Assembly (NCBI GenBank): GCA_046292385.1
Contig: JBKBRF010000033.1
Location: 16,113 to 80,112 of the forward strand
DNA length: 64,000 nucleotides
Direction of reading: 5' to 3'
DNA from: Armatimonadota bacterium
GTDB lineage: Bacteria > Armatimonadota > SYMT01
Shown here: positions 1 to 20,100 of the stretch, in pieces
How positions within the stretch are numbered: the first letter of the stretch is position 1
Layout of the letters: each line of letters begins with the position of its first letter
Translations under genes and position numbers: made by a program
Notes under the pieces: model-generated
The model's database searches: none
Told to the model about the DNA's origin: nothing
Seen by the model: the letters and a program-made list of their open reading frames with translations, nothing else

Positions 1-303
1 GTAGGAGGCCGCGATGGCGGCCGCCTCCGGCTCAGCCCCCGGCTCGGGGTCGAAGCCGCCGACGTAAGGCTCGTAGTCGCCCGTGATCGAATTGACCGCC
101 TCGAAGACCGCCAACTGCGTGATGGCGGCCCAGCGGGCCTGGAAGAGCGGGTTGCTCGGGGCGCTCGGCGGAGCGTTGACCGACACCACCCGCTGCATGA
201 TCTCGTTCCACCCCGTAACCGTGTCGGCGCGTGCGGGACGGGCGCCCATCAGCACCAGCATCGCGACGGCCAGGTAGGCCAGTGGCTGAAGAAGCCGTTT
301 CAT
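1..303 (-). CDS. Secreted vanadium-dependent haloperoxidase/PAP2-like protein, N-terminal part (runs off the window)
   Basis: Not in the ORF track; manual translation from ATG at 303 (RBS GAGGAGG) gives MKRLLQPLAYLAVAMLVLMGARPARA-DTVTGWNEIMQ...ARWAAITQLAVFEAVNSITGDYEPY...EAAAIAASY. This is a signal peptide plus the typical N-terminus of bacterial VHPO-like proteins. The catalytic part lies outside the window. Confidence 0.7.
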   Translation of the reverse strand, partial: MKRLLQPLAYLAVAMLVLMGARPARADTVTGWNEIMQRVVSVNAPPSAPSNPLFQARWAAITQLAVFEAVNSITGDYEPYVGGFDPEPGAEPEAAAIAASY

Positions 304-377: not shown

Positions 378-448
378 AATGTAACCGTCCACCCTCTCGG
401 GACTCTCCCAGGTGAGGGGTGGAAGGAACACTCTCGGAAGCCTCTCAG
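378..448 (-). promoter_or_regulatory. Putative SARP-activated promoter 1
   Basis: -10-like TACATT (378-383, minus strand) plus repeats TCTCGG 395, TCCCAG 406, TCTCGG 432, TCTCAG 443; same spacing as the promoters at 2272 and 7605. Confidence 0.7.
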
Positions 449-569: not shown

Positions 570-2198
570 TCACCTGGTGATGGTGATGTACGTGTAGGCC
601 GTCGCCGGGCTGACACCCGCCTTGGTGATGGTGACGGTAATCCGGGAGGATGAGCGCCGCGGCTGGAACTTGTGCTTTCCCGTGACGGTGAACCCGCCTC
701 CGGCCTTCACCTGGATGGTTCCACTGGAGGAACCGCCGTCTCCCCATTGAATGGTCGCCTTGTAGGCAGTCGCTGCGGACGGGTTCAGGTCCGTAAAGTT
801 CGCGACCGGCCCAGAATACTGGCTGCTGCCGGTGACGATGTTGAGGCCCGTGGCGCTCAACTGCGGCGTCACCCTCGCGTAGCCGCTCGAGACGCCCCAG
901 GAACCGTCGGCCGCAGCCACGGTGATCCGCATTACAAGGGTGCCCGGGGTGGTGTAGGTGTGCGACCCTGCCACGCTGAACCCGCCGCTGCCGTTGGCAG
1001 TGATGAGACCGACGGACGTCTGCCCGTCCCCCCACTGGATGGAGGCGTTGAAGTCCGCGGCTCTGGTCGAGCGTGGGTCCGTGAAGCTAGCGACAACTCC
1101 CGTAAACGCGACCCTTTCGATCGCCTGGATCGACGCGGCCGTGACGTTGGGTCCCGTGGTCTGGTAGACCTCTACCTGGCGCTGTGTCAACAGATACCCG
1201 TCCCAGCTCTGGTCCCATCCGCCCAGAACATAAATGCTCCCGTCCTGGCCCATGGTTACGGCCGGCAGGTCGTGTACGGCGTTCGGCCGCGCCACGGCGG
1301 CCCAGCTATCCCGAGCGGGATCGTAAGCCTCGACCGAGTTGTAATACACCCAGCCGTATTCGTCGAAGTCGCTTCCGATCGCGTAGATCCGGCCATCCCC
1401 GGCGGGACTCAGGTGGACACCCTCGGTGTGCCCGGCCGACAGAGGGGCGAGCGACTCCCAGGCGTTCGCGAGCGCATCGAATCGGTAGACGGCGGTGCTT
1501 ACGGCGCCATCCGGGTTATAGCCGCCGGCGAAATAGATTCGCCCCCCGGCGTCGCTCGTCACACCTGCCCCCTGGAGGAGCCTGATCGGAGGGTCGATTC
1601 GCGGAGACCAGGCGTTCGTGGCGATGTTGTAGGCGATCAGGTACGGAGGCAAGGGAACGCCGTCGTGTCGACCGACTATGGCGTAGATCCGGCCGTCGTT
1701 CCCCACCGCCGCCGAGTTGACGTGTTCCGTAGACGGATCGATGGGCAGCGACGCGATGGGCGACCACTGGTTGGCACGGGTGTCGAAGGCTTCCGCACGG
1801 GTGGCATAGGGCTCCGCCAGGTCATAACCCTGGAAACCGCCGATCGCGTAGATGCGCCCGTCCCGGCCGGTGACACATCCGAAGTAGGCGCGACGATTGG
1901 CCATAGGGGCCACGGAAACCCAGGTGCCGGTCCGGCGATCGTAGGCAAACACCGCCGCCGAATAGTTCCAGCCATCGTGGCCGCCGAGGACGTAGACGCG
2001 GCCGTCTGGACCGGTGGCCGCGCCGGCCCACCCGAGACCGACAGGCATGGGTTCGACATACTTCCACGTGCCCACGTCGGCCCGCGCGGGGCCGGCGGCG
2101 CAGCAGAGCAGCACCGCTGCCGTCGCAAGACATTTGAAGGAACCCCGGAGCATCGACATCCCTTTCGCCAGGCCCATTCGCTTGATGGCCAGTTTCAT
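570..2198 (-). CDS. Secreted Kelch-repeat beta-propeller protein with two C-terminal Ig/PKD-like repeats
   Basis: Start trimmed to MKLAIK at 2198; signal peptide ending PARA-D; repeated DGRIY(A/V)IGG...YD...W Kelch blades; two 'A(S/T)IQWGDG...G' Ig-like units. Confidence 0.85.
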   Translation of the reverse strand: MKLAIKRMGLAKGMSMLRGSFKCLATAAVLLCCAAGPARADVGTWKYVEPMPVGLGWAGAATGPDGRVYVLGGHDGWNYSAAVFAYDRRTGTWVSVAPMANRRAYFGCVTGRDGRIYAIGGFQGYDLAEPYATRAEAFDTRANQWSPIASLPIDPSTEHVNSAAVGNDGRIYAIVGRHDGVPLPPYLIAYNIATNAWSPRIDPPIRLLQGAGVTSDAGGRIYFAGGYNPDGAVSTAVYRFDALANAWESLAPLSAGHTEGVHLSPAGDGRIYAIGSDFDEYGWVYYNSVEAYDPARDSWAAVARPNAVHDLPAVTMGQDGSIYVLGGWDQSWDGYLLTQRQVEVYQTTGPNVTAASIQAIERVAFTGVVASFTDPRSTRAADFNASIQWGDGQTSVGLITANGSGGFSVAGSHTYTTPGTLVMRITVAAADGSWGVSSGYARVTPQLSATGLNIVTGSSQYSGPVANFTDLNPSAATAYKATIQWGDGGSSSGTIQVKAGGGFTVTGKHKFQPRRSSSRITVTITKAGVSPATAYTYITITR

Positions 2199-2271: not shown

Positions 2272-2342
2272 AATGTAACCGGCCGCTCTCTCGGGACTCT
2301 CCCAGGGGAGGGGTAAAACGAACTTTCTCGAAAGGCTCTCAC
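2272..2342 (-). promoter_or_regulatory. Putative SARP-activated promoter 2
   Basis: TACATT at 2272-2277 (minus strand) plus TCTCGG 2289, TCCCAG 2300, TCTCGA 2326, TCTCAC 2337. Confidence 0.7.
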
Positions 2343-2441: not shown

Positions 2442-3356
2442 TCACGTGCTGATCGCGCTGGGGTGGACCGTCATGTTCGGCTCCTGTTCCGGCCGGAAGA
2501 GCAGCATGCGTCCGCAGGGGTCGACCCACGCCTGCGCGATGGTGCCGTCCGCGTGGTAGCGGAACGGCTCCGTCGCCGGGTCGGTGTTCATCGTGGTCCC
2601 CCCCACCTTCTTCCACCTGGCGTGGCCGTCCGCGTAGAGCCAGTGCTGGCCACCGTGGTGCGCCTCGGGGCGACCGTTCATGAACATCTGGACATAGAAG
2701 GTGCCCCGCGCACCGGTGCTGGTCCTCCCGGTGGCGGGATCACAGTCTCCCAGCCGGAAGGGCCAGGCACTCTCCGGCGCGAAGAGCGGGTGGACCCCGG
2801 GGTTGATCTGTCCGGCTCCCCGCCATCGGGAGCGGCCGGTCTCCCAGAGCAGCGGCACGAGCGCCGGGTAGCGGACCTCGGATTGGTTCAGCGCGCCCAG
2901 CAGCCCGTTGAACGAATAGCTGATCTCCGTCGGCTGGACGCCGGGGGTGAGGTTCGCCATCGCTGGATCTCCGGGGATCAGGTCGGCGGTCTCACCCGAG
3001 GGGCAGGCCCAGATCTTGTAGCTCCGGGTGTACGCGTAGACGGCATTGGGGCCCTGAGAGCTGTACCACGCCAGGTGTTCGGGTGAGCTCCGGTCGACCA
3101 CCAGGTTGGGCGGCGAGTAGTAAGCCAGCCGGCCGGCCCGGTCGGGAGCCTGGGCGCCGAGGGGAAAGAGCTCGTCGTGATCCTGTACGTAGAGCATGAA
3201 GGCATTGCCGAGCTGCCTCAGGTTTGAAAGGCAGGTCGCCGCTCGACCCTTCTCCCGCGCTGCCGCGAGTACCGGAAAGAGCAGCGCCGCCAGGATGGCG
3301 ATGATCGCGATCGCCACCATCAGCTCGATCAGCGTAAAGGCACGTTTGCGGGACAT
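2442..3356 (-). CDS. Prepilin-type N-terminal cleavage/methylation protein with H-X9-DG motif (DUF1559-like)
   Basis: AFTLIELMVAIAIIAILAALLFPV, CLSNLRQLG, HHGGQHWLYADGHA. Confidence 0.9.
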   Translation of the reverse strand: MSRKRAFTLIELMVAIAIIAILAALLFPVLAAAREKGRAATCLSNLRQLGNAFMLYVQDHDELFPLGAQAPDRAGRLAYYSPPNLVVDRSSPEHLAWYSSQGPNAVYAYTRSYKIWACPSGETADLIPGDPAMANLTPGVQPTEISYSFNGLLGALNQSEVRYPALVPLLWETGRSRWRGAGQINPGVHPLFAPESAWPFRLGDCDPATGRTSTGARGTFYVQMFMNGRPEAHHGGQHWLYADGHARWKKVGGTTMNTDPATEPFRYHADGTIAQAWVDPCGRMLLFRPEQEPNMTVHPSAIST

Positions 3357-3387
3357 CGGAATCTCCTGTGTGCGCGCGGAGATAAAG

Positions 3388-3996
3388 TCACTCTACAGTG
3401 CCGGCGCCGTGGGCGGCCGGGTCAAAACCGGCGGGCCAGCGGGTGCCGCGGTTAAAGCCGGCGCGTTCCAGGATGGCGCCAGTCAGGTTCGCACCGTCAA
3501 GGTTCGCGTCGTCCAACTGGGCGTCGGACAGGTTGGCGTTTGCCAGGTTGGCCCCCGAGAGGTCGGCGCCGCTGAGGTTCACCCCTTCGAGGCGCGCCCC
3601 GGTGAGATTGGCGCCGGGAAGGCGTGCCCGGGCGAGCTGGGAGCCGGTGAGAGAGGCGCCGGAGAGATCGGCGCGACTCAGGTCCGCTTCCGTCAGGTTC
3701 GCCGTGCGGAGGTTGGCGTTTCTCAGGTTCGCCCCGGCGAAGCTCCGGCCGTGGAGCGCTGCCCGCTCCAGGTTGGCCGGCCCGAGCCGACCGGGCAGGA
3801 GGAACCCGGCGACGGCCACCACTCCCACCGCGGCGGCCAGCAGCCAGCGGCTCTGGAGCGTCGCGATCCCATTCCGGATTCGTTCGCTCACCGGCGCGGG
3901 CGCCGCCGCCACGAGCTCGGCTCCGCAGTCATAGCAGGAGCTCTTCCCGGCCGGGTTGGGGGCGCCGCAGCGGCTGCAAGGGTTCATCCGGGACAT
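3388..3996 (-). CDS. Zinc-ribbon, TM and pentapeptide-repeat protein
   Basis: CSRC...CYDC, hydrophobic helix, then A(N/D)LxG repeats ending WPAGFDP. Confidence 0.9.
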   Translation of the reverse strand: MSRMNPCSRCGAPNPAGKSSCYDCGAELVAAAPAPVSERIRNGIATLQSRWLLAAAVGVVAVAGFLLPGRLGPANLERAALHGRSFAGANLRNANLRTANLTEADLSRADLSGASLTGSQLARARLPGANLTGARLEGVNLSGADLSGANLANANLSDAQLDDANLDGANLTGAILERAGFNRGTRWPAGFDPAAHGAGTVE

Positions 3997-4005
3997 TAGG
4001 CGCTC

Positions 4006-7000
4006 CTACCTCGCTCCGCCTGCCGCCGGCCGGACATCCGGCACGGTGACCGCGGCCTGGAACGGCCACATGCGTTGAACGCGCCGGCGATCGGTCTCGT
4101 TGAACGTGGCGGCGCGCCAGAGCCGCACCCTCCCGTCACCGGCTCCGGCGGCCAGCATGCGGCCGTCCGGGGAGAACACCGCCGAGTTGATGAAGTGAGA
4201 GCCGACGTCGAGCGAGGCGACCTCCCGGCGGGCAGTGACGTTGACGTTATAGATCTTGACCACCCGGTCGGTGCTGCCCACGGCCAGGCTGTTGCCGTCC
4301 GGCGAGAAGGCCACCGAGTAAATGTAGCCGTGGACCCCCTTCAGCGTTGCCGCGGGCAGCTCCGCTTTGCCGGCCCCGGGAACGGGCCGCGTCACGTCCC
4401 ACAGGCTGACATTCCCGTCGGACTGGCCGGCGGCGATCAGCCTGCCGTTCGGTGAGAAAGCGATCGAAAGCGAGTAGCCGCCGCGAGGCGAGAGTATCCG
4501 GGGTGTCTGGTCCTCTCCCCTCGCGATCTCCCAGAGGCGGATGGTCCGATCCTGGCTGGAGCTGGCCACCATCCGTCCGTCCGGCGAGAATGCGACACAC
4601 GCGACCGGTGCGGTATGCGCCTGCAGAGTGGCGATCTGGTGGACCGGGCGCTCGGCCACGTTCCAGAGCCGGACGTTGCAGTCTCCTTCCGCCGAGGCGA
4701 GGGTGCGGCCGTCGGGCGAGAAGGCGAGGGAGTAGATCCCGTGCGCGTGCCGCTTCAAGGGCCGGATCAACTCTTCTCGGGTCTCGACGTCCCAGAGGCG
4801 AATGGTGCTGTCCGCGCCCGCCGTGGCGAGGGTGCGGCCGTCGGGGGAGAACGCCACGGAGAAGACGGCGTCCTTGTGCCCCTTGAAGGTAGCGGGCGTC
4901 TGGCTCCGGCCCCCGGACACCTCCCAGAGGTAGACGCTGCGGTCGAACCCCGCGGTCGCGAGCCTCTTGCTGTCGGGGGAGAACGCCACCGCGGCGACGG
5001 TGTCGTCGTGGCGGGGGAGATGGTCCTGATCGGCGCTGACGGAGGAGGGCCACAGCTTCACGGTCCCGTCCGCGCCGGCGGAGGCGAGGGTTCTGCCATC
5101 CGGCGAGACAGCGACGCAGTGGACCTCCGCGCGGTGTCCAGCGAGTGTGCGGAGCAGCTCGCCACGCCCGTTGTCACGCGGGGTACTCACGTCCCAGAGC
5201 ATGATCGCGGTGTCCCAGCCGCCCGAGACCAGCATCTTGCCATCGGGGGAAAACGCCAGCGAATGCACGTTCGTGGAGTGGCCCCGAAAGCTTCGCAGCA
5301 GCTTGCGGGTGCGCACGTCCCAGAGTCGGCCGAACCCGTCCACTCCACCCGCCGCCAGGAGTGAGCCGTCGGGCGAGAGCGCAAGCGAGGTGAACGCCAC
5401 CTGCCGGCGGCGGCTGTTGGCGGCGGCCCCGTCGAACGGCCGCTTTCGGAAGTTCGCGGTCGCGAAGATGCGTCCGTTGCTTAGCGTCCGGGCCCCGGGC
5501 TTCGCCTCCGCCAGGCTCCAGGTCCGGATCGTGTCGTCGCCGGCGGACGCGAGAGTCTTTCCGTCCGGAGTAAAGGCGACCACGAAGACCCGGGCCGTAT
5601 GTCCCGTCAGGGTCAGCGCGGTCTGGTCCTGACCCTTCACCATGTCCCACACCCGGATCGTCCGGTCGTCGCTGGCAGTCGCCACCTTCCCGCCGTCCGG
5701 GGAGAAGGCAACCGACCAGACGATGCCGTTATGCGCGGGAATGCTCATCACCTGGCGGCGGGAGGGGACATCCCAGATCCTGAGTGTGCCGTCCAGGCTT
5801 CCGGAGGCGAGTCGCCGTCCATCGGGTGAGAACGCGACGCAGTCCACCTCTTCCGTATGGCCGGTCAGGGTGGCGACTTCATGGCCCGTAGCCGCGTCCC
5901 ACAGCCGCACCGTGCGGTCTCCGCCCGCGGAGGCGACACGGCGTCCGTCCGGGGAGAAGGCGACGGAGGTAACCACCCCTACGTGCCCGGTAAAGGTCGC
6001 GCTGGCCTCGCCCTGGCAGAGGCGCCAGAGATAGCGCCACTCGAACCCCCGCACGTCCGCGTCGCCGGGTCGGGGGCGGTGTCCTTCTAACAACTCCGCC
6101 GCCCGGGCAAGATCCCGCCGCTCCCAGGCGCGCTGGGCGAGGTTCATGTCCGCCGCGTAGAGGTAGTGCTCCGCCATCCGCCGATTCTGGGCTTCCCGCT
6201 GTGCCGTGCTGCGCTCCGAGAACGCCAGACCGCCGATGACCGCCATAATCGCGGATGAGACGGCGGCGGTGCGCAGGAGCCCCCGCCGGAACGCGGCTTT
6301 CTGGCGGCGCACCTCCGCATCCGGCATGTGCAGCCTGACCCAGTCCAGATCGAAGACCCGCTCGTAGATCCGGTTGCGGACGGCCAGGAATGCCCTGCAC
6401 TTTCTTCTCGCGGGCAGTCCCACCTGATCGGCGACGCGGACGATCCCCGAGAGGCGCAGGAGGCTGACCAGAGGGTTGTTCTCGTCGCCGCTCACCCGCT
6501 TGCCGCGCCGCACCAGCCCGTAGAGATCCAGGAGGGCGGCGAGATCGACCTCGCTTCGCAGGAGACGGTCCCGCACGAAGAGCAGGTTGTCGTCCCGCTC
6601 CCGGGCGGCCAACGAGAGGAACAGCGCTTCGCAGACCCGATCCACGCCCGCGGCATCGCGGACGGTCCCATCCTGGACGACGGCCAGGCAGAGGCGCTGC
6701 GTCAGGTACGGGTGCCCGCCGGTCCAGAACAGAGTGCGCCGCAGCAGAAGGCCGGCGTGGCTCTTCCCCAGTCCCGGCACGTCGCGCTTCTCCAGGCCGA
6801 ACGCCAGCGGCATGGCCTCCGCTTCGGTGAAGTCCGTGAGCTCGATCCGGCGGCCGATGTTGAACGGGGTGGTGCGGGTGTCCTGAATCAGGTCCGAAGG
6901 AGAAGCGACGCCGAGCAGGCAGAAGGTGAGCCGCTCGTAGCGCGGGTCTTCCGACCGCCGGTTGAAGCAGGCGCGGAGAGCGGCGAAAAACTCGTCCGTG

Positions 7001-7476
7001 GAGAACGGGAGGGAGCGCACGGTATCGATCTCGTCGATGAAGATCACCAGCCGCTGGCCGGGTCCGCAGGAGAGCGTCACCACGGTGGGAAGCACCACCT
7101 CCCGGAGCGCCCGCACCCAGCGCTGCAGCGGGCTCAGGTGCGCGTGCTCCCTCCAGAACCGGTGCAACTCCCGCTCCAGGTCCAGCTGCTCGCCGATGAT
7201 GCCCAGCAGCCCCTCGTACCACTGCTCGGGGGAGAGGTTCTGGCCTAGCGTGGTGAGGTCCAGGACTGCGACGCTCGTGCCCACCTCACGCAGGCGCACC
7301 GCCGTGCGGACCATCAGGGAGCTCTTACCCATCTGCCGGGCGGTGAGGAGATAGCAATACTCCCCTTGCAGCAGCGCGTGGTACAGCTCGTCGTCCGCCC
7401 GTCGTTCCACGTACGAGGGCGCCTCCGGACGGAGGGTTCCCCCCGTGACGTAAAAGCTGGAAGTGAGCGTCTTCAC
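4006..7476 (-). CDS. AAA_35-type P-loop ATPase with TM helix and about 14 WD40 repeats
   Basis: YVERRAD, Walker A ARQMGKS, Walker B IFIDEID, TGGHPYLTQ, hydrophobic segment AAVSSAIMAVIGGLAF, many GH...VAFSPDG...LWD repeats. Confidence 0.92.
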   Translation of the reverse strand: MKTLTSSFYVTGGTLRPEAPSYVERRADDELYHALLQGEYCYLLTARQMGKSSLMVRTAVRLREVGTSVAVLDLTTLGQNLSPEQWYEGLLGIIGEQLDLERELHRFWREHAHLSPLQRWVRALREVVLPTVVTLSCGPGQRLVIFIDEIDTVRSLPFSTDEFFAALRACFNRRSEDPRYERLTFCLLGVASPSDLIQDTRTTPFNIGRRIELTDFTEAEAMPLAFGLEKRDVPGLGKSHAGLLLRRTLFWTGGHPYLTQRLCLAVVQDGTVRDAAGVDRVCEALFLSLAARERDDNLLFVRDRLLRSEVDLAALLDLYGLVRRGKRVSGDENNPLVSLLRLSGIVRVADQVGLPARRKCRAFLAVRNRIYERVFDLDWVRLHMPDAEVRRQKAAFRRGLLRTAAVSSAIMAVIGGLAFSERSTAQREAQNRRMAEHYLYAADMNLAQRAWERRDLARAAELLEGHRPRPGDADVRGFEWRYLWRLCQGEASATFTGHVGVVTSVAFSPDGRRVASAGGDRTVRLWDAATGHEVATLTGHTEEVDCVAFSPDGRRLASGSLDGTLRIWDVPSRRQVMSIPAHNGIVWSVAFSPDGGKVATASDDRTIRVWDMVKGQDQTALTLTGHTARVFVVAFTPDGKTLASAGDDTIRTWSLAEAKPGARTLSNGRIFATANFRKRPFDGAAANSRRRQVAFTSLALSPDGSLLAAGGVDGFGRLWDVRTRKLLRSFRGHSTNVHSLAFSPDGKMLVSGGWDTAIMLWDVSTPRDNGRGELLRTLAGHRAEVHCVAVSPDGRTLASAGADGTVKLWPSSVSADQDHLPRHDDTVAAVAFSPDSKRLATAGFDRSVYLWEVSGGRSQTPATFKGHKDAVFSVAFSPDGRTLATAGADSTIRLWDVETREELIRPLKRHAHGIYSLAFSPDGRTLASAEGDCNVRLWNVAERPVHQIATLQAHTAPVACVAFSPDGRMVASSSQDRTIRLWEIARGEDQTPRILSPRGGYSLSIAFSPNGRLIAAGQSDGNVSLWDVTRPVPGAGKAELPAATLKGVHGYIYSVAFSPDGNSLAVGSTDRVVKIYNVNVTARREVASLDVGSHFINSAVFSPDGRMLAAGAGDGRVRLWRAATFNETDRRRVQRMWPFQAAVTVPDVRPAAGGAR

Positions 7477-7604
7477 GCAGGTTCCTGGCTCTGTACCGGC
7501 TGCACCCGTCCGCTCCGCCGCGTCTGGGTGGCCACTCGCTCACCCACCCGCCATTCCGAGTCGCTGCTCTTCGTTCGAGGACCCGGCCCCGGCACGCTGC
7601 TGAT

Positions 7605-7675
7605 ACTGTAGCTGGGGTCCGTCTCGGAGCTCTCTCAAAACCAGCGTCTCCGCAAGTCTCTCAGAACTCTCTCAC
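7605..7675 (-). promoter_or_regulatory. Putative SARP-activated promoter 3, upstream of the AAA_35-WD40 operon
   Basis: TACAGT at 7605-7610 (minus strand) plus TCTCGG 7622, TCTCAA 7633, TCTCAG 7659, TCTCAC 7670. Confidence 0.7.
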
Positions 7676-7693
7676 CACCGCGGGGGCGGGCTT

Positions 7694-9565
7694 TTACATG
7701 GCCAGCTTGCGGTGGAGGAAGCGAGCATAGACTTCACACCGAAGGCGCGCCGCACCCGATGCCTCTCCGGTGAGGACCCCGGCGCTGCGCAGGCGGAAGA
7801 AGCTCTCCGCGGAGGGGCACGGGTGTCCGTCCAGCACGGCGCGGAGCGCCTGGGTGAGGTCGGGATCCCGCGCCAGAGCGGCGAGCAAGCGGCGAAGGTG
7901 ATCGCTGAAGATTCCTTCCTCTCGCTCCGCGTCGGCTTCGAAGGCATCGATCGGCCGCTGGCGCGGGTCCGACTCGGTCCCATGCCGCGTCGCCATCTCG
8001 TGGAGGCCGCGCCGCACGAGGTAGGGATGACCGCCCACCAGCCGGTAGAAGCGCCCCAGCTCCTTCGCGTCGCGGAGTGGCCCGCCGTACCGGCTGTTGA
8101 GCTCCGCCACCTGGTCCCAGGTGAAGTCCTCCAGCACCAGGCGCGTCCCCACATTGAAGGGCGAATGGTTCAGGTCGCTGATGAAGAGGTGCGCCTCCGT
8201 GGCGTAGGCCATCGCGAGGGTCAGCCGGCCCCACGGCCCGGCGGGGTCCAGGGCTCGCTCGTTGTGCCACGAGCGGAAGATGCCAAATACCTCGCTGGCA
8301 AACCCGCACGAGAACAGCCGGTCCACTTCATCCAGCCCCCACACCAGGCGGGTCTCCAGCCGGCCCAGGACCTCCCGGCGCAGGTAGCGCCGGAGGCTCA
8401 GTCCTGCGCCGCCGCCTTCCCACGTCTCTGTGGGAACCCTATCTAGCTCCAACTGCTCGGAGATCCAGCTGGCGAGGACCCGGAACAGCGAGTCGGCCGA
8501 GGCAAGGTGCGCCTCGCTGAGGACCTGGAAATCGGTGAAGACCACCCGCGCTCCCGCCTCGCGCGCGTGCTGGAGCTCCCGGGCCAGGAGCGAGGTTTTG
8601 CCCACCTGGCGAGCGCCCTTTACCAGGACCAGGCTGTCCCCCCGCTTCACGGCCTGCCGGAACTCGCGATCCGCCGGGCGCGGCAGGTAGAACCGGGAGC
8701 CGAGCGGTACCGCCCCGCCGACCGGCTCCAGAAGCTCCCGGGGGACGGGGGGTAGAGAGGGCTCCGGCGCCGTGTCGCTCGCGCGCTCCGCTGGTACCGC
8801 CGTATGGGCGGGGCTGGCGGAGCCTCCCGCCAGCTCCGCGGCCAGTGCCCGGGTAGCGGCAGCTGGGGCAGCGTTCAACTCGCCCTTGAGGTGGGCCGCC
8901 AGCTCTTCGTAGTGGCGAAGCGCGGCGGCCGGCTGTCCCATCGCCGCGTGCAGCCGCATCACGGCGCGATGCGCGGTCTCGCGGAGTGGATCCGAATGCG
9001 CCGCGCGCAGGGCATAGAACAGCGCGCGCTCGTACTCCGCCATCTTCTCCAGCTCGGCGGAGAGCTGCTCCAGTGCCTGGAGCAGCAGCGAGCGAAGGCG
9101 GTGCTGCTCCGGAGGGATCCAGTCGTCATAGAACCCCGGCAGCAGCTCTCCCCGATGAAGATCCACCGCTTGCACCAGCAGGTCGATCCGCTCTTCGGAC
9201 CTCGAAACGGAGCGGGCGGCCCGCAGCCCGGCCTCGAACTCCCAAACGTCCGTCGTCACCGCGGCCGGATCCAGATGGACGGAAAAGCGGTTGGTCACCA
9301 GCACGGCGCCGTCCGGCACTCCCGGGGGCTCCAGATCGCGCCGGAGAGAGGAGAGCGCGACACTCAGGTTGTGCCGGCTGGACTCGACGCTGCCCTCCGG
9401 CCAGAGCAACCCGACCAGCACCTCGCGCGGATGACCGCGCGGAAGGTGGTAGGCCAGGTACGCCAACAGCGCCGCGGTCTTCTGAGTGCGGAATTGCGTG
9501 ATCTCCCGCTGGCCCTGGTTCACCCGCAGCCCGCCGAGGAGTTGGATCCTGCATCGAGTCTCCAT
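7694..9565 (-). CDS. SARP-family transcriptional activator (wHTH + BTAD) fused to an AAA_35-type ATPase
   Basis: Start METRC with [34 protein letters not shown] (wHTH); [15 protein letters not shown] (BTAD); [26 protein letters not shown]. Confidence 0.92.
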
Positions 9566-9815
9566 GCAGCCTCCTTGCCGCCCTGAACGACGCCGCGCCA
9601 CCCCGGTTTCCGGGAGCACCGGACAAACTGTTTCCCACATCGACTAAGACGCTTGTTCTCGCCAAAGGCAGACTCCTTGCTATATGCCATGACGTGGGGA
9701 ATACGGAGGGGTTCCGTCATCGGTTTTACGACGATGGGGTGCGACCGCACGGTGGAAGCTGCTTACAACGAGAGATTGCAAGCTGCACGCGAGGGCGAGT
9801 CTCCGTTCAAGAGCA

Positions 9816-10058
9816 CTACTGCTCACTGGAGTAGCAGCAGGCACCTCCACCGGTGGTGGTTGGGATCCTGCTCCACGCCAGGGATGACCGCACCAAACCA
9901 GGCGACAGAGGGTCCAGGTGCAACGCCTCGCCCGCAACCTGCGCCAGCCGCCAGACGAACCGCTCCAGGATCCGCGTGCGGTCCATGAGGGTCCGTCGGC
10001 TCCAGCCCTGGGCCTTGCCGGTGATCCAACGGCCAACGGCGCGATTGAGATCGACTCC
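9816..10058 (-). pseudogene. Probable tyrosine-integrase N-terminal (SAM-like) remnant
   Basis: Manual translation with no proper start: DLNRAVGRWITGKAQGWSRRTLMDRTRILERFVWRL...LSPGLVRSSLAW, then stop; lies ~200 bp from the tRNA 3' end. Confidence 0.4.
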
Positions 10059-10251
10059 GGACGCCGGGGCGCAGCGATGCGGGAGCTCCGGGCGGCGCCC
10101 GGGGTGGAGACGGAAACAGCCGCCCGCCCCAGTCGAGGGGTAGAGGGTCTGAGCTGCGTTTTCAGCTCCTATCGAAGGATCGAAGGAGCTGGCGGATCAG
10201 GGAGTAGATGCGCTGTTTGTGCCTGATGTGGGAATCGGCACCGCTGAAAAG

Positions 10252-10324
10252 TGGGTCGGCTGGGACTCGAACCCAGGACCACCTCCTTAAAAGGGAGATG
10301 CTCTACCGACTGAGCTACCGACCC
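10252..10324 (-). tRNA. tRNA-Lys (anticodon UUU), CCA not encoded
   Basis: GGGTCGG-TA-GCTCAGTCGGTAGAGC-A-TCTCC-CTTTTAA-GGAGG-TGGTC-CTGGG-TTCGAGT-CCCAG-CCGACCC-A folds as a cloverleaf. Confidence 0.97.
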
Positions 10325-10368
10325 ATGCCCCGCGTGCGGAGGAGACCGTCCGACCGAAAGGCGCGCGT

Positions 10369-10377
10369 AGTATAGCA
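10369..10377 (-). promoter_or_regulatory. Extended -10 promoter for tRNA-Lys
   Basis: TGcTATACT on the minus strand ~45 nt upstream of the tRNA. Confidence 0.55.
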
Positions 10378-10547
10378 CACCGCGCGCCCGGCTGCTACCT
10401 CTTCCGCGCCGCCCCGCGCCGGCGGCGCCCCGGCGGGCGGACAGGGAGTGTAAACTGAGTCCGGCCGGGCAATACCTTCTCCTGGAGGCGCGCGCCTGGC
10501 TGCTCCGAGCCCCGGGGCTCGCGATCCGCGCCGGTGTCTGGTACTGC

Positions 10548-12005
10548 ATGGCTTTCCGACTGCTTTCCGCGCTCACCCTGGTACTCCTGCTGCTCGCCGT
10601 CGCTCCGGCCCCGGCCCGACCGGGAGCGGAGCCGGAGTCTCCCGATTTCCGCTGGCGCCTGCCGGTGCGCCCGGCGGCGCTCGAAGCCTCCGCCGGGGAG
10701 TTGCTGCCGGGGCCGGACGACGGCCCCCCGCAGCTCCGGTGGAGCCTCTCCCTCTCGCCCGGGCAGGCCGCCGAGCTGCGGGTGCCGACCCGCCGCGCGC
10801 GGGACCGGGACCTGCTGCTATTCACGGTGGCGGACGTCGAGCCGAAGGTGCCGCTGCGGCTCACGCTGCTGGATGCGGACGGCGCCGCCGCGGCGGAGGA
10901 GCTGCTCTCCGCGGACGAGATCCGCGTGGCGCGGCAGCGAAGCCTGATCCTGCGGGAGGCGGACGGCCGTCCCGCGACGCTCCGCGTGGAGCTGGTACCG
11001 CCGGAGAACGGCAGCCCGCTGCCGGAGCGGGTGGAAGTCACCCTCTCCCGGATGCAGTTCTTCCGTCTCTCGGAGCGCTCCCGCCCGGACGCCTGGCTCG
11101 TCGTCGGCGCCAGCCTGGAAGAAGCGGCGTTCAAGGACCCGGACCAGTTCTGGCGCGCCGTGCGGCGCCGCTACCCCCAGGCAGACCCGCTCTTGATCTC
11201 CCTGGCCCAGGGCGGCTGGGTCATCGACAACGCCCTCCGCCGGGCGCCGGAGACGCTGCGACGGCATCCCCAGATTCGGACGGTGCTGGTCCATATCGGC
11301 GGCAATGACATCACCCGCGCCCGCTACTACCCGAATGACGCCGGCCGCATCCGGGACCGGATGCGCGAGCTGCTCGAGCTTCTAAGTGGCGACGGCCGGC
11401 AGGTCTACCTTTCCCGGATGAGCTACCGGGCGTACAAGACCGAGCCGCGGGTGCCGCCGGAGTTCCACGGCTCCCTGCCGTACAACCAGATGATCTATGA
11501 TCCGCTGATCCGCGAGTACTCCCCCGCGCTTCTCGATCCGCGCACGCTGCAGACGCGGATGGACCCGTACGACTACTTCCTCCGCCACCCGGAAGAGCTG
11601 AGCCCGGACGGGGTCCACAACACCGAAAAGGGGCAGGAGAGCTGGATCCGGCTTTGGACCGACGCGGTCACCCCGCTGGTCTATGAGCCGGAGGTGCGCC
11701 GCGCCGCCCTCCGGGAAACGAGTGCTCGCCTGGCCGCCGAGGAGTCCCGGCGGAATTCCGCGAACCGTACTCTGAGCAGTCGCTCGGGGAAAGCAGGACG
11801 CGGAGCCGCCCAGCCGGCCCCGCCCGTTTCACAGAAGGGGAAGGGCCATGCGCAGGGCAGCACTCGGAGTGGTGGGGGTGGGAATCGCGGCAGCGGGCCT
11901 GCTGTGGCTCCGGCCCGTGGCGTCGGAGGTGAACCAGGTCAAGGAAGTAGCCCCCGGAGTGTTCTTCCACGAGGGGGATCTGCACGGGCACGGGCACTGC
12001 AATAA
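10548..12005 (+). CDS. Secreted SGNH/GDSL-family hydrolase
   Basis: Signal peptide; blocks VVGASL, HIGGND, DGVH; low-complexity tail overlaps the next gene. Confidence 0.8.
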   Translation: MAFRLLSALTLVLLLLAVAPAPARPGAEPESPDFRWRLPVRPAALEASAGELLPGPDDGPPQLRWSLSLSPGQAAELRVPTRRARDRDLLLFTVADVEPKVPLRLTLLDADGAAAAEELLSADEIRVARQRSLILREADGRPATLRVELVPPENGSPLPERVEVTLSRMQFFRLSERSRPDAWLVVGASLEEAAFKDPDQFWRAVRRRYPQADPLLISLAQGGWVIDNALRRAPETLRRHPQIRTVLVHIGGNDITRARYYPNDAGRIRDRMRELLELLSGDGRQVYLSRMSYRAYKTEPRVPPEFHGSLPYNQMIYDPLIREYSPALLDPRTLQTRMDPYDYFLRHPEELSPDGVHNTEKGQESWIRLWTDAVTPLVYEPEVRRAALRETSARLAAEESRRNSANRTLSSRSGKAGRGAAQPAPPVSQKGKGHAQGSTRSGGGGNRGSGPAVAPARGVGGEPGQGSSPRSVLPRGGSARARALQ

Positions 12006-14155: not shown

Positions 14156-17100
14156 ATGCCTACTGAACCCTCGTCTTTTCTCCACCTGGGCACCGCCGCC
14201 ACCCTGATCGGCGCCGCCCTCTCCGTGCTTCAGATGGCGCCTGCCGAAGAGGCAGAGGCCCCGTTCCGAGCGGAGCTCCTGAGCCGGGAGCAGCTCGCCG
14301 AGCGGGCGCGGCAGCTGGCGCGGGAGCACCGGGTGCTCCCCGGAAGGCAGCGCGGGCGCCCGCTGCTGCGCCGGGTGGAGGAGAGTGCGCGGTCGCTGGT
14401 CCGCAGCTACCAGGCGATCGCGGCGGCGGCGCGCCGGGGCGAGCCGGTGACGCCGGCCTCGGAGTGGCTGCTCGACAACTTCCACATCGTGGAGGAGCAG
14501 ATCACCGGCATCCGCAAGCACCTGCCGCGCACCTACTACGCGGAGCTGCCGAAGCTGCGGGACGGGGAGCTCGCCGGCTACCCGCGGGTCTACGCGCTGG
14601 CGCTGCTGATCATCTCCCACTCCGACGGCGCGCTGGACGAGGAGACGCTGGCGGAGGTGGTGCAGGCGTACCAGAGCATCTCGCCGCTCAGCATCGGCGA
14701 GCTCTGGGCGGTGGCGATCATGCTGCGCGTGGGGCTGGTGGAGAACCTCCGTCGCCTCACCGAGCCGCTGGAGGCCCAGCGCCTGGCGCGCGCGGAGGCC
14801 GACGCCTGGGCGGAGCAGGTGATCGCCGCCGCGGCGAACGGCGCCTCCGAAGTAGCAGTGGTGCTGGGACAGCTCGCCGGGAGCCGGCTGCGGCTGCGGG
14901 ACCCGTTCGTCGTGCGACTGGTCCAGCGGCTCCGCGGTCGCGGCGCCGCGGTGCAGCCAGTGCTCGACTGGCTGACGCGCCACGTCTCCGGCCAGGGCGG
15001 TCCCACCATCGAGGAGCGGGTCCGCGCGCAGAACCAGCTGCAGGCGGCGGACCAGGTCTCGATCAGCAACACGATCACCAGCTTCCGGCTGCTCGACCGC
15101 ATCGACTGGGCCTCCTTCTTCGAGAAAGTGAGCCTGGTCGAGGCGGTGCTCCGGCGAGATCCCGCCGGGATCTACACGCAGTGCGACTTCGCCACGCGGG
15201 ACGCCTGCCGGCATGAGGTGGAGCGGATCGCCCAGCGCAGCAACTCCACCGAGCTGGAAGTTGCCACGGAGGCGATCGACCTCGCCCGGGAGGGAGAGGC
15301 GCGCCGTCCCGGAGAGGTGCGACGGGCGCACGTCGGTTATTACCTGATCGACCGCGGCTGCCGGGAGCTGGAGCGGCGGTCGGAGTACCGCCCCACTTCC
15401 GGCGAGCGGGTCCATACCTGGGTGCTGGACCACCCGACCGCCATCTTCCTCGGCGCAATCACGCTTTTCACCGTGCTCTTCACGGCGATCGCGGTCTGGT
15501 ACGCCGCCGTGGCCGGGCCGGATGCCTCGCCCTGGCTGGTGGCGCTGGCCGGCCTGGCGGCGCTCATCCCCGCCAGCGATCTGGCGGTCTCCGTGGTCAA
15601 CCGCACCACCACGCTGCTGCTCCGGCCGCGCGTGTTGCCGAAGCTCGACTTCAGCACCGGCACGCCGACGGAGTTCCGCACGCTGGTGGTGATCCCCACG
15701 CTGCTCACCAGCGAAGAGGGGGTCGACGAGCTGCTCGACAACCTGGAAGTTCACTACCTGGCCAACACCGACCGGAACCTCCACTTCGCGCTGCTGACTG
15801 ACTTCGCCGACGCGCCGCAGGAGGAGATGCCGTCCGACCTGGCGCTCCTCCACCGCGCCATCAGCGGCATCCTGCGGCTGAACGACCGGTATGAGGGGGT
15901 CAACTGCTATCAGCGGTTCTACCTCTTCCACCGCCCCCGCAAGTGGAACCCGTGCCAGGAAGTCTGGATGGGCTGGGAGCGGAAGCGCGGCAAGCTGATG
16001 GAGCTGAACCGGCTGCTGCGCGGCGCGGAGGACACCAGCTACCAGATCGTGATCGGCGACCGCGAGGCGATCCAGGGGGTGAAGTACATCCTCTGCCTCG
16101 ACTCGGACACGCAGCTTCCGCCGGAGTCGGCCCACCGCCTGATCGGGACGATGGCGCACCCGCTCAACCGCCCGGTCATCGATCCGGAGACGCGGCGCGT
16201 GGTGGAAGGCTACGGGCTGCTCCAGCCGCGCGTGAGCATCAACCTGCCGAGCGCCGCGCAGACGCTTTTCACCCGCATCTTCTCCGGGAACGCCGGGGTC
16301 GACCCCTACACCACGGCAGTCTCCGACGTCTACCAGGATCTCTTCCGCGAGGGGATCTTCTGCGGAAAGGGGATCTACGATCTCGACGCCTTCGAGCAGG
16401 TGCTAGAGGGGCGGGTCGGCGAGAACGAGCTGCTGAGCCACGACCTCTTCGAGGGCAGCTTCGCCCGCTGCGCGCTCGCTACCGACATCGAGCTGTTCGA
16501 CGACTACCCGGCCCGTTACAACAGCCACGCCGCCCGGCAGCACCGGTGGATCCGGGGCGACTGGCAGCTCCTGAAGTGGCTGGCGCCGCGGGTCCGGCAG
16601 CCCGCCACCGGGGGGCGCCCGGGCCCGAACCCGCTCTCCGCCATTGCACGGTGGAAGATCTTCGACAACCTCCGCCGGAGCATGGTGGCGCCGGCGCTGG
16701 CGCTGATGCTGGCGCTCGGGTGGCTCGTGCTGCCGGGAGAGCCGGTGGTCTGGACTCTCGGCGCGCTCCTGGTGGTGCTCTTCCCGATCTACGCGCACCT
16801 CGCCGGCGCGCTCATCGTCGATCCGCGCGCCGTCCCCTGGACCAGCTACTTCTGGAACGTCTGGTACGACGCGCTGACCAACCTGGAGCAGGGGGCGCTC
16901 ACGCTGAGCTTCCTGATGCACCAGGCGGTGAACGCGGTCGACGCGGCGGTGCGCACCCTCTGGCGCATGTTCGTCACCCGACGGAACCTGCTGGAGTGGA
17001 CCACCGCCGCCGCCGCGGAACGGATGCTCGGCTCGGACCTCGTCAGCTTTACCCGGCGGATGGCGCCGTCGGTTGCCGTCTCCGCCCTGCTGCTGGTGCT

Positions 17101-20100
17101 GGTGGCGGCGCTCCGGCCGGGGGCGCTCGGCGCGGCCTTGCCGGTGCTGCTCACCTGGTTCGCCGCGCCCTGGGTCGCCTGGGCGGTCAGCCGGCCGCTC
17201 CGGAAGGAAGTCGTCACCCTGGCCCCGGATGAGATCGACTACCTGCGCCTGACCGCCCGAAAGACCTGGCGCTTCTTCGAGGAGACGGTCAGCGAAGCCG
17301 ACAACTGGCTGCCGCCGGACAACTACCAGGAAGACCGGTTGCCGGCGATCGCGCACCGCACCTCCCCCACCAACATCGGCCTCCTGTTGCTCTCCACCGT
17401 CTCCGCGCGCGACCTCGGTTATGTCGGCCTGCTGGAGATGACCGACCGGCTGGAGCGCACCATGGCGACCCTGGACGGGATGGAGAAGTTCTGCGGGCAC
17501 TTCTTCAACTGGTACGACACGGAGACCGCGAAGCCGATCCTGCCGTTCTACATCTCCACCGTCGACAGCGGCAACCTGGCCGGGCACCTGATCGCGCTCA
17601 AGCAGGCGTGCTGGGAGCTGCAATCGGAGCCGGTCTTCGGGGAGCAGACGCTGGCGGGCCTGCGGGACGTGCTGGCCGGGCTCCGCGAGGCGCTGGGCGA
17701 CAAGGAGGGCGTGCTGGCGGAGCCGCTGGCGACGATGTCCCAGCTCCTGAACGATCCGTCTTACAGCGGCCCGGCTTGGCACTTCCACCTGCAGAAGATC
17801 CGGTCGGTCGCCACCGTGATCGAGCAGCAGGCGGCGTCACTCTCCGAGATCGAGCTCGGCCGGGAGCCGCGGGCCTGGATCGGGATGCTTTCCCGGTCCG
17901 CGGCGGAGCTGCAGCGCGACCTGGAGACATTGATCCCCTGGGCCGGCCTCCTCACCATGCAGCCGGTGCCGTTCGGCGACGGCAAGCCGCTGTTCGGCGA
18001 CCTCGAGGACCGGCCGCACGTCTTCGCGGAGCTGGTGACGCCCCCGGGAAAGCGCCCGCGCGGGCTCTTCCAGCTCGCGGAGGCGATGGACCGCGCCCTC
18101 GCGCACCTGGAGCGGCTCTACGCCCGCCTGGAGCTGGACGGGGTCTCCCCGGAGCAGCAGGAAGCGGCGCGGACCTGGCTGGGCGAGCTCCGGAACGCCT
18201 TCGAGCAGTGCCGGGTGCAGCGGGTGCAGCTCCTGCGCCGCCTCAGCGCCCTGGCGGAGCAGGCGAACCGGATGGTCGAGGAGATGAGCTTCGCGTTCCT
18301 CTACGACGAGGCGCGCGATCTCTTCGCCGTCGGCTACAACGTCACCGAGGCGCGGCTGGACGGGTTCCACTACGACCTCCTCGCCTCCGAGTGCCGGCTG
18401 GCGAGCTTCGTAGCGATCGCCAAGCGGGAAGTGCCGCAGAAGCACTGGTTCCGGATGGGCCGGGCTCTCACTTCCGCCGGCGGCGAGCGGGCGCTCGTCT
18501 CCTGGAGCGGCACGATGTTCGAGTACCTCATGCCGCTGCTCGTGATGCGCTCCTACGGCGGCACGCTGCTGGCGGAGACGATGCCGGCGGTGGTGCGGCA
18601 GCAGCAGCGCTACGCCGCGCGCGAAGGGGTGCCGTGGGGGATCTCCGAGAGCGGCTTCAGCGCTCGCGACCCCGGCATGAGCTACCAGTACCACGCCTTC
18701 GGGGTGCCGGGCCTGGGGCTCAAAGCGGACCTCTCCGAAGACCTGGTGATCGCGCCGTACGCCACCCTGCTCGCGCTGCCGCTGGCGCCGCGGGAGGCGG
18801 TGCGGAACCTGGAGGCGCTGGAGCGCGAGGGAGGCGAGGGCCCGCTCGGCTTCTACGAGGCGATCGACTACACCCCGACCCGCCTGCCGCGCGGCGAGCG
18901 GAGCGAAGTGGTGCGCAGCTACATGGCGCACCACCAGGGCATGGCGCTGGTGAGCCTGGCGAACTATCTGCTCGGCGACCCGATGCAGCAGCGCTTCCAC
19001 GCCGACCCGCTGGTGAAGTCGGCGGAGCTGCTGCTCCAGGAGCGCAACCCGCGCGAGGCGACGCCGGCCCACCCGCAGACGCAGGAAGTGCTGGCGGCGC
19101 AGACCGTCCGGCGCGAGCTGGCCGCCGCCTCCGTGCGCCACTACACCACGGCGCAGACGAGCACCCCGCGCGTGCAGCTCCTCTCCAACGGCAGTTACGC
19201 GGGAATGGTCACCAACTCCGGCGGCAGCTACAGCACCTGGAAGGGGATCGCCGTCACCCGCTGGCGGGAGGACCCGACCCGCGACCACTGGGGGACCTTC
19301 CTCTACCTGCGCGATCTGCAGAGCGGCAGCGTCTGGAGCGCCACGCAGCAGCCGCTGCCGCAGGTCGCCGCGGAGTACGAGGTCTACTTCACGGAGGACA
19401 AGGCGGAGTTCCAGCGGCGCGAGCACGGCATCATGAGCCGGCTGGAGGTTTGCGTCTCCCCCGAAGACGACGTCGAGATCCGGCGGCTCACGCTGACCAA
19501 CCTCTCCGACCAGCCGCGGGAGATCGAGGTGACGAGCTACGCGGAGGTGGTGCTCGCCAAGCCGCAGGCCGACATGGCCCACACCACCTTCAGCAACCTC
19601 TTCCTCGAGACGGAGTTCCGTCCGGAGCGCACCGCCCTGCTGGCCACGCGCCGGCCACGCGCCGCGGGACAGGAGCGGCTCTGGGCGGTCCACGTGCTGG
19701 CGCACGAGGGGGTGCCGGCGGAGATCTGGGCCGCCACCGAGTACGAGACCGACCGCGCCCGCTTCACCGGCCGCGGACGCACCACCGCCAACCCGCTCGC
19801 CCTGGAGACGAATGAGCCGCTCTCCGGCGCCACCGGACCGGTTCTCGACCCGATCTTCTCCCTGCGGCAAAAGGTGCGGATGGCGCCGCGGCAGACGGTC
19901 CAGCTCGCCTACATCACCGGCGCCGCGGCCAGCCGGGAAGAAGCGCTCGCCCTGGCGGAGCGGTACCACGACCTCCGCGCCGCGGGCCGCGCCTTCGAGC
20001 TGGCGTGGACCAACAGCCAGGTAGAGCTGCGCCACCTGGGGCTCACCCCGGAGCAGGCGAACCTGTGCCAGCGCCTCGCCTCCCGGGTGCTCTACGTCGA

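Follow-up and report, generated by a model that had tools for sequence, protein, structure and literature searches.

Can a transcriptional regulator that has no sensor and a membrane protein that has no effector be the two halves of one signalling device? The question is raised by two adjacent minus-strand genes in a 64,000-nucleotide (nt) stretch of an Armatimonadota genome (assembly GCA_046292385.1, contig JBKBRF010000033.1), referred to here as the window. Gene A (7694..9565) encodes a SARP-type DNA-binding part followed by an AAA_35 ATPase, and gene B (4006..7476) encodes a second AAA_35 ATPase followed by a hydrophobic helix and 14 WD40 blades. An earlier note on this DNA had proposed that sensing and transcriptional output are divided between the two proteins and coupled through hetero-oligomerisation of their ATPases. 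Joint function of the two genes is well supported by the comparative evidence assembled here, and we consider it very probable that they work together. That they are two subunits of a single device, descended from anciently diverged AAA_35 paralogues, with B as the receptor and A as the output, is a bolder statement that we favour. The pair in the window belongs to a large family of two-part cassettes, in which it represents a form with SARP as output and WD40 as sensor.

Two AAA_35 ATPases with different appendages

Gene A, an output protein of the SARP-AAA_35 type according to domain scanning, codes for 623 amino acids (aa). Its open reading frame (ORF) as listed runs from 7694 to 9640 (minus) and extends past the probable start; ATG 9565 is the likely translation start, because AAGGAGG lies immediately 5′ of it, homologue alignments begin at residue 26-29, and the closest homologue among the matches listed (P0003, whose ATPase is 93% identical) is likewise 623 aa long. 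The SARP part (8831..9487) comprises a putative OmpR-type winged helix (ORF residues 52-106) and a BTAD domain (130-270). In the Pfam search, BTAD reached 72.7 bits against a cut-off of 22.1, as is characteristic of the SARP family, while Trans_reg_C reached 22.1 bits, under its 26.2 cut-off, with orthologues attaining up to 32.8 bits at the same position. The A-type AAA_35 NTPase module (7712..8716; ORF residues 309-643), delineated by Pfam, AlphaFold2 (AF2) and Foldseek, carries the motifs GARQVGKT, LDEVD, SPFNVG and GGHPYL together with a C-terminal winged-helix part, and matched AAA_35 (PF14516) with 230.9 bits over profile positions 4-330/331 (gathering score 27 bits). The chain stops after AAA_35, with no repeat domain; Pfam returned neither an NB-ARC nor a TPR match at E up to 0.01, and no NCBIfam model matched gene A. 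Gene A therefore falls outside the AfsR-type large SARPs, in which an NB-ARC/NOD NTPase is followed by TPR in one chain. Its nearest named relatives come from Chthonomonadaceae and other Armatimonadota metagenome-assembled genomes (MAGs); a planctomycete origin, hinted at by a nearby DUF1559 gene, was set aside in their favour.

Gene B encodes 1156 aa, assigned by Pfam to AAA_35 and WD40 on either side of a membrane helix. The B-type NTPase module (6322..7476; residues 1-385), recognised by profile match, AF2 and Foldseek, bears ARQMGKS, IDEID, TPFNIG and GGHPYL; its AAA_35 match amounts to 84.8 bits and covers profile positions 4-239 only (gathering score 27 bits). Behind it lies the hydrophobic helix LLRTAAVSSAIMAVIGGLAF (6220..6279; residues 400-419), which we take to be membrane-spanning on the basis of hydrophobicity and charge bias. 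Most of the remaining chain is occupied by the WD40 region (4087..6039; residues ~480-1130), a presumed extracytoplasmic sensor. Pfam found 14 WD40 stretches there (E 1.6e-152), manual counting likewise gave 14 blades with a mean pairwise identity of 38%, and this number is enough for closed propellers. The region contains no tandem repeat at the DNA level, and NCBIfam yielded weak propeller matches only.

The two ATPases are 32% identical across 247 residues (E 9e-22), a likeness far beyond chance. The earlier note had placed both adjacent genes in one ATPase family, had quoted their Walker A/B, (S/T)PFN(V/I)G and GGHPYL motifs, and had described A as a SARP N-terminus without a C-terminal repeat sensor and B as a helix with about 14 WD40 repeats; each of these readings was borne out, with every quoted motif present in the translations. 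The Walker A glycine and lysine and one Walker B aspartate are invariant in 52 A and 45 B sequences, the adjacent acidic residues are at least 90% conserved, and the P-loop motifs of gene A and gene B are intact. The A-type ATPase is strongly conserved, at ~60-65% identity across phyla.

A sequence search of the PDB found no relative of either ATPase. The AF2 model of the gene A ATPase reached a pLDDT of 94.2 and a pTM of 0.90; that of gene B(1-470) reached a pLDDT of 88.2 and displayed nucleotide-binding (NBD), helical and hairpin-bearing domains. In both models the P-loop core is joined to a helical and a winged-helix-like domain, which is the NBD-helical-winged-helix build of the ORC/STAND kind, and GGHPYL may correspond to the GxP motif of the STAND helical domain. 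The best Foldseek matches of both modules were the archaeal proteins PAB2304 (2qen) and SSO1545 (2fna) and, after them, ORC/Cdc6 proteins, with E values from 7e-10 to 2e-8 and TM scores of ~0.5-0.6. Those of the gene A ATPase also included Avs3, MalT and CED-4, those of the gene B ATPase ORC2 and CED-4, and further STAND matches across both modules were Apaf-1, NOD2 and plant resistosome chains. Because Avs3, MalT, CED-4, Apaf-1, NOD2 and resistosome chains are among these matches, 'NLR-like' seems a fair description of the build of the modelled ATPases, with ORC/Cdc6 and the archaeal ATPases ranking level with or above the STAND matches for both. PAB2304, SSO1545 and ORC/Cdc6 share only 13-18% sequence identity with the modules and lack the SARP and TIR domains, the membrane helix and the propeller seen in the cassette proteins.

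A conserved pair with interchangeable parts

In the 7.04-Mb genome that contains the window, AAA_35 has exactly two matches, gene A and gene B, and they are adjacent. A metagenome survey seeded with the A-type ATPase alignment alone returned 79 loci, of which 11 with <700 nt downstream of A were set aside. A B-type gene lies directly downstream of A on the same strand in 54 of the remaining 68 testable loci, and elsewhere in the locus in 3/68. The earlier note had suggested such a gene-neighbourhood survey and had named a failure of the two genes to co-occur as an outcome that would overturn its proposal; that objection has fallen away. Across the surveyed pairs the median gap between A stop and B start is ~0, with 27 pairs overlapping, 13 of them by 4 nt. 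Loci from named genomes of Chthonomonadaceae, an Actinomycetota MAG and Blastocatellia have the order A-B or A-A-B. Among 20 relatives' loci hand-picked from gene A homologue matches, which form a biased sample, A is followed by B on the same strand in 14, another arrangement occurs in 2, B is missing in 2 and the contig edge intervenes in 2. No third gene is conserved beside the pairs; counterparts of the pentapeptide, DUF1559, Kelch, GDSL and MBL neighbours were not found by pairs elsewhere, apart from 3 weak matches. The A-B pair is a conserved modular cassette of two paralogues that stand side by side and are inherited together.

Tandem A-type genes were also encountered. Since such tandems share a single B in two loci (L028 and L053), several outputs may be served by one receptor. 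A third tandem (L113, G005:C16) has no B in the retrieved DNA.

A tree built from the initial 270 residues of each module covered 62 A modules, 62 B modules and 17 modules found in other proteins. A single long branch, with a length of 3.09 substitutions per site and a support of 1.0, splits all A from all B modules, so that the paralogues form two clades with a deep division between them. For 62 pairs, retained only where both modules were near full length, the matrix of A-A distances correlated with that of B-B distances at a Mantel r of 0.82, a value reached by 0/2000 permutations.

The joining of two proteins in one chain is a classic, if indirect, sign of joint function. A search for longer proteins gave 17 matches, four of which (P0203, P0244, P0245 and P0246) hold an A-like module followed by a B-like module. 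In all four, module 1 falls on the A side of the tree and module 2 on the B side, and a hydrophobic helix follows the B module in 3/4. Their N-termini carry a kinase, a TIR domain, or a trypsin-like peptidase with TIR (the last in P0245 and P0246); one of the fused proteins is named from a Tolypothrix strain. The same search brought up other module combinations: P0130 has two B-type modules with several hydrophobic helices between them, P0132 has three B-like modules with CHASE2, and P0243 joins SARP and NB-ARC/TPR to an A-type AAA_35 module at its end.

If the two genes were merely an old tandem duplication, A could be a regulator of the medium-SARP kind, switched by its own nucleotide state, and turn on B by transcription, with B self-contained and the two proteins never touching. 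Candidate SARP boxes upstream of B (described below) agree with such a purely transcriptional link, as do the 11/68 A genes without B in the retrieved DNA, the weak complex score reported in the next section (0.56), and sensorless SARP-ATPases, which are described in passages of PMC10972967. The link nevertheless fails to explain the pairing as a whole, because the pairing persists where A carries TIR, kinase or cyclase in place of a DNA-binding part. The 27 overlapping gene pairs and the four independent A-B fusions also speak against it, and it would leave B with an NTPase that has no output of its own. We regard this purely transcriptional reading as very improbable, and direct contact between the A and B NTPases as somewhat more likely than not.

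The A partner varies at its N-terminus and the B partner behind its helix. In 22 relatives, the A N-termini comprised 11 BTAD, 8 TIR (some with cyclase), 1 wHTH only, 1 HTH_31 and 1 none; in 68 others, TIR_2 was found in 42, Pkinase in 39, cyclase in 11, Trans_reg_C in 10 and BTAD in 2, and the best 120 of 3900 database matches showed the same range of outputs. B-type database matches numbered 4503, with the ATPase kept and the part behind the helix varying. WD40 stands behind the helix in 22/42 complete B proteins, and 12 B proteins that were re-scanned had PEGA/CarboxypepD_reg in 5 (with YfiO-like and SnoaL-like parts), TPR in 3, NHL in 1 and short WD40 arrays in 3. Among database relatives of B, PD40, CHASE2 and other domains occupy this place. 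A rough table of 31 complete pairs paired 4/4 wHTH or SARP outputs with a WD40 partner and 13/13 kinase+TIR outputs with the non-WD40 class. The domain content supports the view that the cassette is modular in the manner of NLR-like systems, with outputs on A and sensor-type domains behind the membrane helix on B.

The prevalence of TIR, the commonest output (42/68 N-termini, often with kinase), raises the prospect that most cassettes of the family serve in conflict or defence, sensing envelope attack and firing TIR, kinase or peptidase effectors, with the SARP form as an offshoot that induces envelope proteins. The trypsin-like peptidase with TIR in the fused P0245 and P0246 would suit this role, as would a tRNA-Lys gene just upstream of gene A and a patchy distribution: AAA_35 was detected in 12/41 related genomes, among them 6/6 from the family to which this organism belongs, and in 0/14 control genomes, the largest number in a single genome being 14 matches. 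Against it, no PADLOC system model matches either ATPase, the base composition around the locus is even, and the output of gene A is transcriptional; the idea moreover adds to the receptor-output explanation instead of excluding it. Defence as the main function of the family strikes us as unlikely.

At the level of 90%-identity clusters, each half of the cassette numbers in the thousands across several phyla and is annotated only as 'AAA-like domain-containing protein'. Counts of 19265, 10646 and 4041 were rejected as estimates of family size; the profile behind them included N-terminal columns and mixed ATPase with TIR-type matches. We found no paper on AAA_35 pairs in main texts, and other names or supplements may cover such NTPases; AAA_35 and SARP are absent from the main text of Kaur et al. 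2020, Kaur et al. 2021, the 2026 STAND survey and a paper on diversity-generating retroelements. Paired AAA_35 NTPases may form a class of bacterial transmembrane signalling that is widespread yet still undescribed, in which a membrane-anchored, STAND-like receptor with its sensor facing outward acts on a paralogous cytoplasmic NTPase with a swappable output (SARP/wHTH, TIR, kinase, cyclase or peptidase) and without a His-Asp phosphorelay, a generalisation that we advance tentatively and at slightly less than even confidence.

Membrane placement, contact and sign of control

A receptor role for B presupposes a membrane passage, and the position of the hydrophobic helix is shared across the family. 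A hydrophobic 19-mer (Kyte-Doolittle (KD) >=1.6) lies 362-410 residues past the ATPase start in 39/42 complete B proteins; among the remaining three, two have values of 1.58-1.59 and one has no helix. In the relatives' loci, a 19-mer of KD at least 1.6 lies ~380-530 residues into the ORF in 15/16 complete B proteins, L114 being the one without, and no A protein of these loci has a hydrophobic 19-mer at the matching place. In gene B itself, the 19-residue value is 1.69 and the segment is part of one continuous AF2 helix (387-452). Counting lysine and arginine in the 15 residues before and after the helix, we found the higher number before it in 38/42 proteins, equal numbers in 4 and a lower number in 0, and the mean net charge is +4.9 before versus +1.7 after. 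An ATPase inside and repeats outside would fit, because lysine and arginine are in excess before the helix; as a prediction, B fits a single-pass receptor with its N-terminus inside and a positive-inside bias. PEGA, CarboxypepD_reg, NHL, PD40 and CHASE2, all found behind the helix in relatives, are domain types usually located outside the cytoplasm.

Contact between the two NTPases was modelled by complex prediction for B(1-395) with the gene A ATPase, the chains being given as alignments. The score was 0.56, the best of 3 controls scored 0.00, 90% or more of the contacts were common to the runs, and the partner pLDDT was at least 80. The mark applied to such predictions is reached by 116/157 solved complexes and 2/215 mismatched pairs, and the range of passing scores up to 0.60 holds only 18/157 solved complexes together with both passing mismatches. 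The pass may partly echo known structures, because paralogous ATPases of this kind have many solved oligomers (ORC, STAND), and we treat it as a minor supplement to the genomic evidence.

Beyond joint function, we infer contact between the NTPases, an outward sensor, a sign of control and a regulon, which combine into the following mechanism. B would hold its NTPase in the cytoplasm, cross the membrane with one helix and expose the 14-blade WD40 part outward, and A, as the soluble subunit, would deliver the output, which in this locus is a SARP activator of transcription. A cue on the outer domain of B would alter the nucleotide state or packing of the B NTPase, which would then engage the A NTPase in a hetero-oligomer. 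This engagement would free or pair the SARP domains, allowing them to recognise direct repeats of a heptamer at 11-nt spacing, so that three like promoters fire: one shared by gene B and the DUF1559 and pentapeptide genes, which would close a positive feedback loop, one for a secreted Kelch protein, and one for a PAP2-like gene. In relatives, the same chassis would drive TIR, kinase or cyclase outputs.

Several observations weigh against this receptor-output mechanism. A DNA-binding output held at the membrane would be awkward unless A is released. Pairing is not strict, with no B within the retrieved DNA in 11/68 loci and other arrangements in 3, and A-A and B-B tandems also occur. The neighbour genes in the window are not conserved next to pairs elsewhere. 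The co-divergence of A and B would be expected from shared descent alone too. The helix of gene B appears only moderately hydrophobic (KD 1.69), and placing the sensor outward would require export of a 700-residue WD40 part. The complex prediction supports A-B contact weakly, and its score may stem from a resemblance to ATPase assemblies of known structure. Of the split between sensor and output over a coupled pair that the earlier note proposed, the pairing is upheld by the cassette, the four fusions and the co-divergence, while hetero-oligomerisation draws on a complex score of 0.56, which is weak, and indirectly on the fusions.

The sign of control is a separate matter. B might keep A inactive at the membrane through NTPase-NTPase contact and release it on a cue, in the manner of MalK/MalT or anti-sigma/sigma, and all of the coupling evidence (co-occurrence, fusions, tree and co-divergence) applies equally to this arrangement. 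A released, soluble SARP would suit DNA binding better than a membrane-bound one, one of the fold matches is MalT (8bob, whose title refers to negative regulation of the maltose system), and passages of PMC10936776 describe the ATPase and sensor parts of AfsR as inhibiting its SARP part. TIR and kinase outputs usually need induced proximity, by contrast, which favours activation by assembly. Under inhibition, control of B through SARP boxes would become negative feedback, which is also plausible. We consider inhibition by B unlikely, if far from negligible, and activation of A by B, as opposed to restraint, is an even call.

Among known regulators, the closest layouts are those of other SARPs. 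AfsR-type SARPs combine SARP, a nucleotide-binding oligomerisation domain (NOD) and TPR in one chain, as set out in parts of PMC10936776 and PMC10972967, and the former describes in those parts an AfsR SARP that the NOD and TPR of the same chain restrain until ATP is bound. The latter, in the relevant passages, describes 'medium SARPs' of ~600 aa composed of SARP and NB-ARC. As far as these passages go, the large SARPs AfsR and PolY and the medium SARPs CdaR and CpkO of Streptomyces resemble gene A in having an N-terminal SARP part (BTAD and an OmpR-type winged helix, the latter putative in gene A) ahead of a P-loop NTPase with the NBD-helical-winged-helix build. Gene A differs in that its NTPase is AAA_35 with no NB-ARC match, in having no TPR in the chain and a paralogous membrane partner encoded next door, and in its host, which belongs to Armatimonadota and not to Actinomycetota. 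The layout of the medium SARPs, on the same partial descriptions, is that of gene A, which is set apart by NTPase family and dedicated partner. The earlier note had been unable to confirm that its system was undescribed: the sensorless SARP-ATPase layout already goes by the name of medium SARPs, and it is the AAA_35 family and the dedicated partner that differ.

Division of labour between paralogous NTPases has a parallel in eukaryotic immunity. RRS1/RPS4, the NRC network and NAIP/NLRC4 are paired or helper NLRs, the plant ones often encoded by adjacent genes, and as in A-B, paralogous NTPases divide sensing and output. The abstracts of PMC6187137 and PMC10410763 describe such paired or sensor-helper NLRs as two paralogous NTPase receptors that split the two tasks. 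Compared with them, the sensor in gene B has a membrane helix and repeats predicted outside, the NTPase family differs, and hetero-assembly is here a supposition.

The bacterial STAND proteins MalT, Avs and bNACHT share with A-B the effector-NTPase-repeat sensor logic, and TIR and other effectors are common to both; they are single chains with cytoplasmic sensors, whereas A-B distributes effector and sensor over two chains, each with an NTPase. Receptor Ser/Thr kinases with an outer beta-propeller, such as PknD with NHL repeats, consist of a cytoplasmic enzyme, a single helix and an outer propeller. Gene B is alike in layout and in the types of outer domain (WD40, NHL, PEGA), with an NTPase in place of the kinase and the output on a second protein.

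If the proposed reading is true, bacteria would possess a third general route for transmembrane signals besides two-component systems and receptor kinases, an NLR-kind NTPase switch spread over two chains. The division of labour between sensor and helper known from plant and animal NLRs would then exist in bacteria as well, as a prokaryotic counterpart of cell-surface receptor and helper NLR, and SARP regulators outside Actinomycetota would gain a defined upstream input. The locus would offer a compact test bed, since a single receptor, a single regulator and three candidate target promoters lie within 10 kb of each other.

Candidate SARP sites and the neighbouring genes

SARPs bind heptamer direct repeats in 11-nt phase by the -10 element, following an 8-nt spacing rule. 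A pattern scan and alignment revealed a SARP-box-like element in the 217-nt gap between A and B (7605..7674, minus), with TGAGAGA at 7674, 7663 and 7637, CGAGACG at 7626 and, after 9 nt, TACAGT at 7610-7605. The same procedure gave a second copy (2272..2341, minus; heptamers at 2341, 2330, 2304 and 2293, 9 nt, TACATT 2277-2272) and a third (378..447, minus; heptamers at 447, 436, 410 and 399, 9 nt, TACATT 383-378). All three elements, ~70 nt each, lie on the minus strand between genes, one before gene B, one before the Kelch gene and one before the PAP2-like gene. They align without internal gaps, with heptamers at 0/11/37/48 nt, a 9-nt spacer and the -10-like hexamer TACAGT or TACATT, and their geometry, which matches that of SARP repeats, makes them candidate SARP sites. 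Passages of PMC10936776 describe the AfsR SARP domain as a side-by-side dimer on direct repeats that overlap the -35 element.

Chance was estimated at several scales. The 18-mer pattern TGAGAGA-N4-TGAGAGA of the A-B gap, with its 11-nt phasing, is unique in the genome, and an exact 7-mer repeat of any kind at that spacing arose in 79/5000 shuffles of the gap. The degenerate element pattern matched 3 times in 64 kb against 0.07 expected, with 0/100 shuffles reaching 3, a contrast tempered by the derivation of the pattern from the very sites that were then counted. Genome-wide the pattern is not enriched, with 11 matches versus 12 for the control (30 versus 28 in a looser form), and another strong SARP in the genome, encoded on contig 43, could bind the boxes; these points too count against the proposed regulon.

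The TGAGAGA direct repeat, in the same or a related form, recurs in the A-B gaps of relatives from other genera, once in L119 and twice in L109. Scanning 7 genomes of the family, we obtained 15 repeat matches versus 6 for a reversed control, 14/15 of them outside long same-strand ORFs; 6 of the 15 fall in or right after SARP-AAA_35 pairs and 2 flank another SARP gene. The repeat is conspicuous only in its local clustering and, as a stricter pattern, among relatives. Elsewhere in relatives it precedes genes for a sigma-70 region-4 protein (L217:768-1499, minus), a collagen-repeat protein (L213:228-1448, minus) and a SARP-cyclase (L204:1551-3017, plus). In genome G002 (L209, L215 and L217), TCTCTCA, the reverse complement of the heptamer, lies 6-8 nt upstream of the direct repeat; because of it, the site could alternatively fold into a hairpin or be bound in a different way.

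The genes downstream of the elements were identified by domain scanning. A protein with a zinc ribbon, a hydrophobic helix (51-69) and pentapeptide repeats is encoded 9 nt downstream of gene B (3388..3996, minus) and is probably co-transcribed with it. The pentapeptide gene is followed after 31 nt by a DUF1559 gene (2442..3356, minus), whose product bears an N-terminal methylation motif of the prepilin type. The Kelch-repeat protein (570..2198, minus) has a signal-peptide-like N-terminus after the likely start ATG 2198. Its ORF as listed (570-2417, minus) opens at TTG 2417, and the stretch 2198-2417 holds the second promoter element; the real start is probably ATG 2198, with GGAGAGAG upstream. 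The PAP2/vanadium-chloroperoxidase-like gene (1..303, minus; PAP2 27.6 bits, 430 aa) starts at 303 and extends beyond the window. The earlier note's suggestion that the system controls secreted proteins has some basis, because like elements precede gene B and genes for exported proteins; two of the three stand before exported-protein genes, and the suggestion is qualified by the other SARP that might be the binder.

A scan of 3000-10600 for consensus promoters and terminators found nothing above chance, and the only Rfam match was a tRNA-Lys gene (anticodon TTT; 10251-10324, minus), which shares the strand of gene A and lies ~690 nt upstream of it. tRNA genes are common insertion points for islands; the base composition is even around the locus, with a G+C fraction of 0.66-0.73 over the first 16 kb. 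Further along, a 2976-aa ORF (14156-23086, plus) combines GH94 supersandwich, GH94 catalytic and glucoamylase domains and resembles a cyclic beta-1,2-glucan synthase.

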